DNA of 64,000 nucleotides, from the NCBI RefSeq assembly GCF_017348835.2, contig NZ_CP071375.1; one strand, given 5' to 3'. Shown here piece after piece: positions 15,847-16,236 of the stretch. A program made the position numbers and the translations under genes. Numbering within the stretch: the first letter of the stretch is position 1; each line of letters opens with the position of its first letter. The DNA comes from Escherichia coli. Lineage in GTDB: Bacteria > Pseudomonadota > Gammaproteobacteria > Enterobacterales > Enterobacteriaceae. Under the pieces are notes generated by a model, which was not told where the DNA came from, did not search any database, and saw only the letters and a program-made list of their open reading frames with translations.

Positions 15847-16236
15847 GTTCAATCATAACAACCTCTCTTATAATTATGGGTATTCTACGGAAACAATATA
15901 CCGTGGTGAAGCTAATTTACTCGATTGCTGCGATGACTACCTCCGGGGGACAAACCTTATGTAAATACTATGGTCCTGCGGTGATGATTTGTATGTGATA
16001 CACAGCAACATTTCGAGATATTCATACGGCATCTAATACTGATTTAATTCTGGTTAAAATACAGACAGATAACAAGATGAATATTCTTAATGTTTACGTT
16101 AAAAATGTTTAATATTATTTAATAGTTGTTAATTTGAATACTTCGATAATGTTATATTTCCTGATAATCATTTGCAGGCAAAATGTTTTCACCCTTAAAT
16201 GAGTATTTATTCTCATAAATCGAAAAAGGATTCATT

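Follow-up and report, generated by a model that had tools for sequence, protein, structure and literature searches.

The AT-rich block upstream of yffB in Escherichia coli is probably part of an ordinary H-NS-bound divergent promoter spacer of the core genome

The spacer between ypfM and yffB of Escherichia coli K-12 appears in two published surveys of H-NS binding. Table 1 of Shimada 2014 (PMC3946193) lists this spacer, ypfM<>yffB, as bound by both the sigma-70 holoenzyme and H-NS in genomic SELEX. Higashi 2016 (PMC4720273) profiled H-NS by ChAP-seq in K-12, SE11 and SE15; its S2 Table records H-NS binding as TRUE/TRUE for yffB and FALSE for dapE, classes yffB as not horizontally transferred, and gives the transcription unit the name yffB-dapE-ypfN. 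The corresponding locus of Salmonella has been described from the RNA side. There, STnc250 has been equated with the ypfM mRNA (Sittka 2008), the Pfam family PF28148 (YpfM) is recorded for the ypfM orthologue, and the sRNA SdsR represses a yffB::gfp fusion that covers -97 to +75 (Fröhlich 2016, PMC5137417).

The window analyzed here is a 64-kb stretch of E. coli DNA, to which strain PE164 is an exact match over the two stretches compared. Within it lies a strongly AT-rich block that occupies the yffB-proximal two-thirds of the divergent spacer 15857-16236, between ypfM on the minus strand and yffB on the plus strand. The block and the genes around it are as follows.

12585-15698, plus strand: acrD
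15797-15856, minus strand: ypfM, a 19-aa small-protein gene (MIERELGNWKDFIEVMLRK), from the RefSeq annotation of K-12 and PE164
15999-16236, no strand assigned: the AT-rich block, 238 bp, 25.6% GC
16237-16593, plus strand: yffB, ArsC family
16597-17724, plus strand: dapE
17752-17952, plus strand: ypfN

We estimate a probability of about 0.8 that this is an ordinary AT-rich, H-NS-bound divergent ypfM/yffB promoter spacer of the core genome, with no gene inside it. The operon served from the ypfM-yffB spacer is yffB-dapE-ypfN (16237-17952, plus strand). The original prediction had placed the block upstream of yffB, and it does lie on the promoter side of that gene; however, the spacer is shared with ypfM, and the leftmost 45 bp or so of the block fall in an element that belongs to the ypfM side. 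Elsewhere in the window, the PE164 annotation gives hyfR, which encodes the hydrogenase-4 operon regulator, as a frameshifted pseudogene (locus L085, 11062-13073; about 36928-38939 of the window).

The block is 100% identical to the sequence of K-12 MG1655, and the comparison with K-12 that had been proposed as a check thus identifies it as conserved core backbone. Of 5426 complete E. coli genomes, 5425 contain a match to a 601-bp query that spans it (window 15700-16300), with at least 80% coverage in 5411. Among 80 species-level loci across the Enterobacteriaceae, most keep the gene order acrD-ypfM-yffB. In many cases the spacer is close to 385 bp long, and the DNA directly upstream of yffB is usually well under the local average in GC content. 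The spacer is old core backbone and not an insertion. Between genera, the GC content of the 238 nt that precede yffB varies from 25% to 52%, and the extreme AT-richness seen here is therefore partly lineage-specific.

Strain F374 (NZ_OY754371.1, locus L082 3253-4196) belongs to the roughly 14 genomes with less than 80% coverage of the 601-bp query. In it, a copy of IS1A has taken the place of the block as well as of the 5' half of yffB. The annotation here gives an ArsC-family pseudogene with a truncated N-terminus, and dapE and ypfN are intact. The loss of the block from a natural isolate that has retained dapE supports the view that the block is dispensable.

With 61 G+C among 238 bases, the block has a GC content of 25.6%, compared with 50.9% for the whole window. 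A uniform composition of 50.9% would give 121 G+C (sd 7.7) in a segment of this length, which corresponds to z = -7.8. Just 0.09% of the 238-bp windows across the 64 kb reach a value this low, and every one of them overlaps the ypfM-yffB locus; the absolute minimum (24.4%) is found at 16031-16268. The block had been described as far more AT-rich than its surroundings, and these values bear that out. Window positions 1-50000 hold 21 annotated intergenic regions with a length of at least 60 bp, and the 380-bp ypfM-yffB spacer is the longest of them. Its GC content of 31.3%, against a mean of 43.6%, is the second lowest of the 21, with only the 85-bp uraA-upp gap lower. TpA steps occur at 11.8 per 100 bp in the block, compared with 4.5 for the window, and a core tract of 106 bp (16042-16147) has a GC content of 19.8%. 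The block combines a very low GC content with frequent TpA steps, which fits the usual preference of H-NS.

The next distinct 238-bp minimum of the window, at 54027-54264 (26.5% GC), is the second most AT-rich stretch of this length and lies near pdeF (yfgF). In K-12 the yfgF<>yfgG spacer is likewise H-NS-bound (Shimada 2014, PMC3946193). Beside pdeF, the segment from about 55000 to 64000 has a GC content of about 35-47% and carries trbL, trbJ, genes for a RepA-family helicase and a LuxR-family regulator, and IS3; it looks like an integrative conjugative element. An 11-kb query reached at least 80% coverage in only 3 of the 5426 complete E. coli genomes.

DNA that is AT-rich and bound by H-NS is often foreign, and short ORFs (10 aa, 17 aa and two of 11 aa) can be read in the block, as would be expected if it hid an sRNA or small-protein gene or were a remnant of horizontally acquired DNA. 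We consider this very improbable. The ORFs that overlap the block are mechanical only, 31-54 aa long; a Pfam search matched them to no family, and in the alignment neither E. albertii nor a divergent Escherichia genome nor Salmonella has their start codons, so that these are not conserved even within Escherichia. These ORFs and the shorter upstream ones were therefore rejected as genes, and the original statement that the block lacks ORFs holds in this sense. An RNA family or riboswitch was rejected as well, since Rfam gave no match within 15999-16236 at E values up to 10 and the predicted folds are like those of shuffled sequences, with no stable fold among them. The repeat search returned only short, chance-level repeats at the block and no inverted-repeat ends that would point to an element. 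A foreign origin is further opposed by the presence of the locus in essentially all E. coli, by its synteny across the family and by the published classification of yffB as not horizontally transferred (Higashi 2016, PMC4720273).

The block had also been suggested to be curved, and a static bend from phased A-tracts could in principle recruit RNA polymerase or H-NS. AT-rich upstream regions are often curved, and of the five A or T runs of at least 4 in the whole spacer, four are inside the block. The predicted path of the DNA, however, is straighter than that of most of the window. Under a wedge model, whose parameters serve only to rank segments inside the window, the ratio of end-to-end distance to contour length is 0.956, at the 81st percentile, which makes the block straighter than 81% of the windows of the same length. 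Local bend angles in the block are all below about the 78th percentile and mostly under the median, and shuffled sequences show a stronger AA/TT periodicity at 10-11 bp than the block does (p = 0.95). The suggestion of curvature is not supported by these results, and we give intrinsic bending very little credence as an explanation of the locus.

What the block does contain is a set of probable signals for the expression of yffB. They are listed here together with a start site inside the gene.

16150-16158, plus strand: yffB promoter, extended -10 TGTTATATT, with TG at 16150-51 and the hexamer TATATT at 16153-58
16021-16048, plus strand: distal yffB promoter TTCATA-16-TTTAAT, proposed from SELEX in Table 1 of Shimada 2014 (PMC3946193) as a sequence prediction only
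16165-16236, plus strand: predicted yffB 5' leader, about 72 nt, AT-rich, with the Shine-Dalgarno (SD) sequence AAGGA at 16226-16230
16327, plus strand: internal transcription start site (TSS) in yffB, assigned to dapE with a 270-nt leader (Kim 2012, PMC3415461, TSS 2589359(+))

The element at 16150-16158 has the composition of an extended -10, a TG followed by a near-consensus -10 hexamer (5/6), and is situated 78 nt upstream of the yffB ATG. It has no good -35; the best candidate, TTAATT, matches 3/6 at 18 bp. The exact 9-mer is present in 28 related loci, 70-123 nt upstream of the yffB ATG. In the Salmonella locus analyzed (L083) it occupies 1388-1396. The published fusion starts at position -97, which corresponds to 1404, 8 nt past the hexamer. 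The Salmonella 5' end supports, across species and by experiment, the assignment of this 9-mer as the yffB promoter. Because -97 in Salmonella sits 8 nt after the conserved hexamer, we infer a start for E. coli yffB at 16164-16166. At this locus the TSS supplement of Kim 2012 (PMC3415461) gives only two starts for ypfM and the internal one assigned to dapE; it has none upstream of yffB, and for the orthologue in Klebsiella it likewise gives no TSS. The distal candidate would rank second to the extended -10, because its -10, TTTAAT, has no A at the important second position and is not conserved beyond Escherichia; it is also not among the top candidates of the position weight matrix (PWM). The proposal that the block is a promoter region is thus supported by an extended -10 that is conserved in the 28 loci and aligns with a Salmonella 5' end.

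Folding of the predicted yffB leader is no better than that of shuffled sequences (z = +0.86 for the short form and +0.50 for the long form), and the leader is 55% identical between E. coli and Salmonella. Published start sites were placed on the window by subtracting 2573032 from the coordinates of Kim 2012, a conversion checked against the start coordinates of dapE and ypfM. Since Kim 2012 assigned the start at 16327 to dapE, the spacer is perhaps not the sole source of dapE transcripts, and dapE transcription may be partly independent of the spacer promoter. The original prediction had assigned the region to the whole of yffB-dapE-ypfN. A yffB promoter is supported, but part of the block serves ypfM and dapE may have another source of transcripts. 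DapE is an enzyme of the diaminopimelate/lysine pathway, and a possible start beyond the H-NS-bound DNA is useful for annotation, if unsurprising.

How strongly the different parts of the spacer are held in sequence was read from alignments, made over 19 genera or species and then for the Escherichia/Salmonella/Citrobacter group only. The identities below are to Salmonella and Citrobacter, with the third codon positions of yffB and dapE as the yardstick.

Third codon positions of yffB and dapE: 49-58% identity
15857-15915, ypfM promoter and leader: 66-83% identity
15986-16041, conserved element: 66-75% identity
16042-16147, AT-rich tract (19.8% GC): 43-52% identity, at or below codon position 3
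16148-16160, extended -10 region: 85-100% identity
16161-16224, yffB leader: 45-56% identity
16225-16236, SD region: 92% identity to Salmonella and 58-83% to the Citrobacter genomes, with the AAGGA core kept

Judged by these alignments, the tract 16042-16147 appears to drift at about the synonymous rate. Since the tract and most of the yffB leader are no better conserved than codon position 3, the bulk of the AT-rich block is free to change in sequence. Any constraint on most of the tract would act on its composition and not on its sequence.

Such a pattern is also what would be expected if the AT-richness were a by-product of weak constraint and AT-biased mutation, with H-NS binding that has no regulatory effect; the -10, the SD and the ypfM element would then be all that matters. 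An AT-biased mutation spectrum is described for enterobacteria and is generally regarded as universal. The tract and most of the leader, at 43-56% identity, are no better conserved than codon position 3, the composition of the homologous upstream DNA varies widely across genera, no specific H-NS motif is enriched, and the block has been lost in F374. However, both an in vitro and an in vivo dataset report H-NS at the spacer or yffB, the GC content of the tract is far under the 43.6% mean of the other intergenic regions, and spacers of about 385 bp are seen in several genera. We regard a purely passive origin as possible but doubtful.

The left part of the spacer belongs to ypfM, with the following features.

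15875-15910, minus strand: main ypfM promoter P1, with -35 TTCACC (15910-15905), a 17-bp spacer and -10 TAGAAT (15887-15882)
15875, minus strand: TSS of P1 (Kim 2012, PMC3415461, 2588907(-)), 19-nt leader
15985, minus strand: minor, weaker leftward TSS (Kim 2012, PMC3415461, 2589017(-)), which abuts the conserved element
15986-16041, no strand assigned: conserved element, with the core TGTGA-N6-GCAAYATT..GAAA at 15993-16022, overlapping the left edge of the block

P1 is the sole match of the consensus scan in the region and has the top PWM score. Its hexamers are kept across genera and are identical to those given by Shimada 2014 (PMC3946193). The core of the conserved element is single-copy in E. 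coli genomes. In 43 loci from many enterobacterial genera it is separated from the ypfM ATG by 134-144 bp (with one outlier at 152), and from the yffB ATG by anything from 154 to more than 1200 bp. Because its distance is fixed to ypfM, at about 137 bp from the start codon, and variable to yffB, the element belongs to ypfM and not to yffB, and it is under purifying selection. It is tentatively possible that the element is a binding site or alternative promoter of an unassigned regulator of YpfM, and that the AT tract insulates it from the yffB-dapE promoter. The papers searched contain no description of the element.

By eye, the element fits poorly to the consensus sequences for CRP, FNR, sigma-54, RpoE, PurR and the marbox. 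A BaeR box was rejected as its identity, with nothing within 3 mismatches in the spacer. A near-perfect BaeR box, TTTTTCTCCACGATTGGC, with 1 mismatch to the published consensus, is found at 12497-12514 upstream of acrD, where BaeR control is expected. On the other side of ypfM, Rfam gives a sub-threshold STnc250 match at 15698-15817 on the minus strand (36.9 bits, compared with a gathering score of 42). Within this match, acrD and ypfM converge on a perfect 12-bp stem (AAAAAGGCGACA / TGTCGCCTTTTT) at 15703-15738, which is flanked by A and T runs and looks like a bidirectional intrinsic terminator.

The purifying selection on 15986-16041 is also relevant to an explanation in which the block is mainly a landing pad for MarA/SoxS/Rob, for Fur or for the factor of this element, and in which these, not H-NS, set the expression of yffB-dapE. 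In Salmonella, a MarA ChIP peak with the motif ACCCAATTTGATAAA has been reported at ypfM<>yffB, and a one-mismatch copy of the reverse complement of that motif, TTTATCAAATCGGGT, is present in the homologous part of the Salmonella spacer. A fur mutant of Salmonella also shows yffB expression raised 2.6-fold, and the Fur box that was predicted maps to the yffB leader directly upstream of the SD. However, the p-value of the MarA motif is weak (3.7e-05) and the peak was seen for only one of four regulators, the Fur box is a prediction that corresponds to a different sequence in E. coli, and the conserved element keeps its distance from ypfM rather than from yffB. Along with the repression by SdsR, the data on MarA and Fur hint at additional inputs to the locus; all of them come from Salmonella and none from E. 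coli. Overall, we consider control of yffB-dapE chiefly by such regulators unlikely.

An H-NS-bound promoter spacer remains our preferred explanation. The original prediction that the block is H-NS-bound is supported by the published K-12 SELEX and ChAP-seq data, which were obtained on a sequence identical to the block. An identical K-12 sequence with an ordinary promoter and no regulatory role had been named as the outcome that would speak against the prediction; the sequence is identical, but binding of a silencer, H-NS, is documented there. The high-affinity H-NS motif TCGATAAATT is not enriched in the block, with two 8/10 matches (at 16013 and 16143), and the whole window has 77 such matches, compared with 63 +/- 8 expected. 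A nucleation motif of this kind is not required for H-NS binding. In the minor-sigma SELEX data of Shimada 2017, the sole nearby peak is inside acrD and irrelevant to the spacer.

The tract 16042-16147 is the most likely binding platform for H-NS and would, at the same time, act as spacer or upstream DNA for the yffB promoter. Read from right to left, the block would consist of the ribosome-binding site of yffB and its unstructured leader of about 72 nt; next, the sigma-70 extended -10 promoter TGTTATATT, for which a good -35 would not be needed; then some 105 bp of 20%-GC DNA whose sequence could drift; and, at the left edge, the end of the conserved upstream element of ypfM. H-NS would bind the tract because it is so AT-rich and TpA-rich, and would coat about 16040-16240 and the start of yffB, but not dapE. 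The likely effect would be to damp the yffB promoter and stray initiation in the AT-rich DNA, and dapE may in addition be transcribed from the start at 16327 inside yffB. We infer that H-NS binding lowers yffB expression.

The spacer is already catalogued and ordinary, and the original interpretation of it is essentially right. The result carries little weight beyond showing that one compositional outlier need not be counted among the candidates for foreign or novel DNA. A yffB promoter position (16150-16158) is added that is better supported than the distal one proposed from SELEX, and the single mildly new item is the conserved element linked to ypfM on the left border of the block.

The spacer resembles three described systems. 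It shares with H-NS-bound (silenced) regions that it is AT-rich, TpA-rich, divergent and bound by both the sigma-70 holoenzyme and H-NS, that binding extends into the start of the downstream gene, and that the DNA diverges faster than the flanking coding sequence while its H-NS-bound status is retained. It is itself a member of both published lists (PMC3946193, PMC4720273), and nothing sets it apart from the class. Textbook cases such as proU, bgl and hns differ in having a defined nucleation site, bridging partner site or derepression condition. The yffB promoter resembles the extended -10 (TGn) promoters of sigma-70, with a TG one base upstream of a 5/6 hexamer and no recognizable -35, and the AT-rich DNA upstream of it could serve as an UP-like element; its assignment differs in resting on conservation and on the Salmonella 5' end. 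With the Salmonella spacer, known for STnc250/ypfM and for SdsR and yffB, the E. coli locus shares gene order, promoter elements and an AT-rich unstructured leader. The Salmonella system has data of its own in the Hfq-associated ypfM mRNA and the SdsR-repressed yffB fusion; the yffB leader is only 55% identical between the two species.
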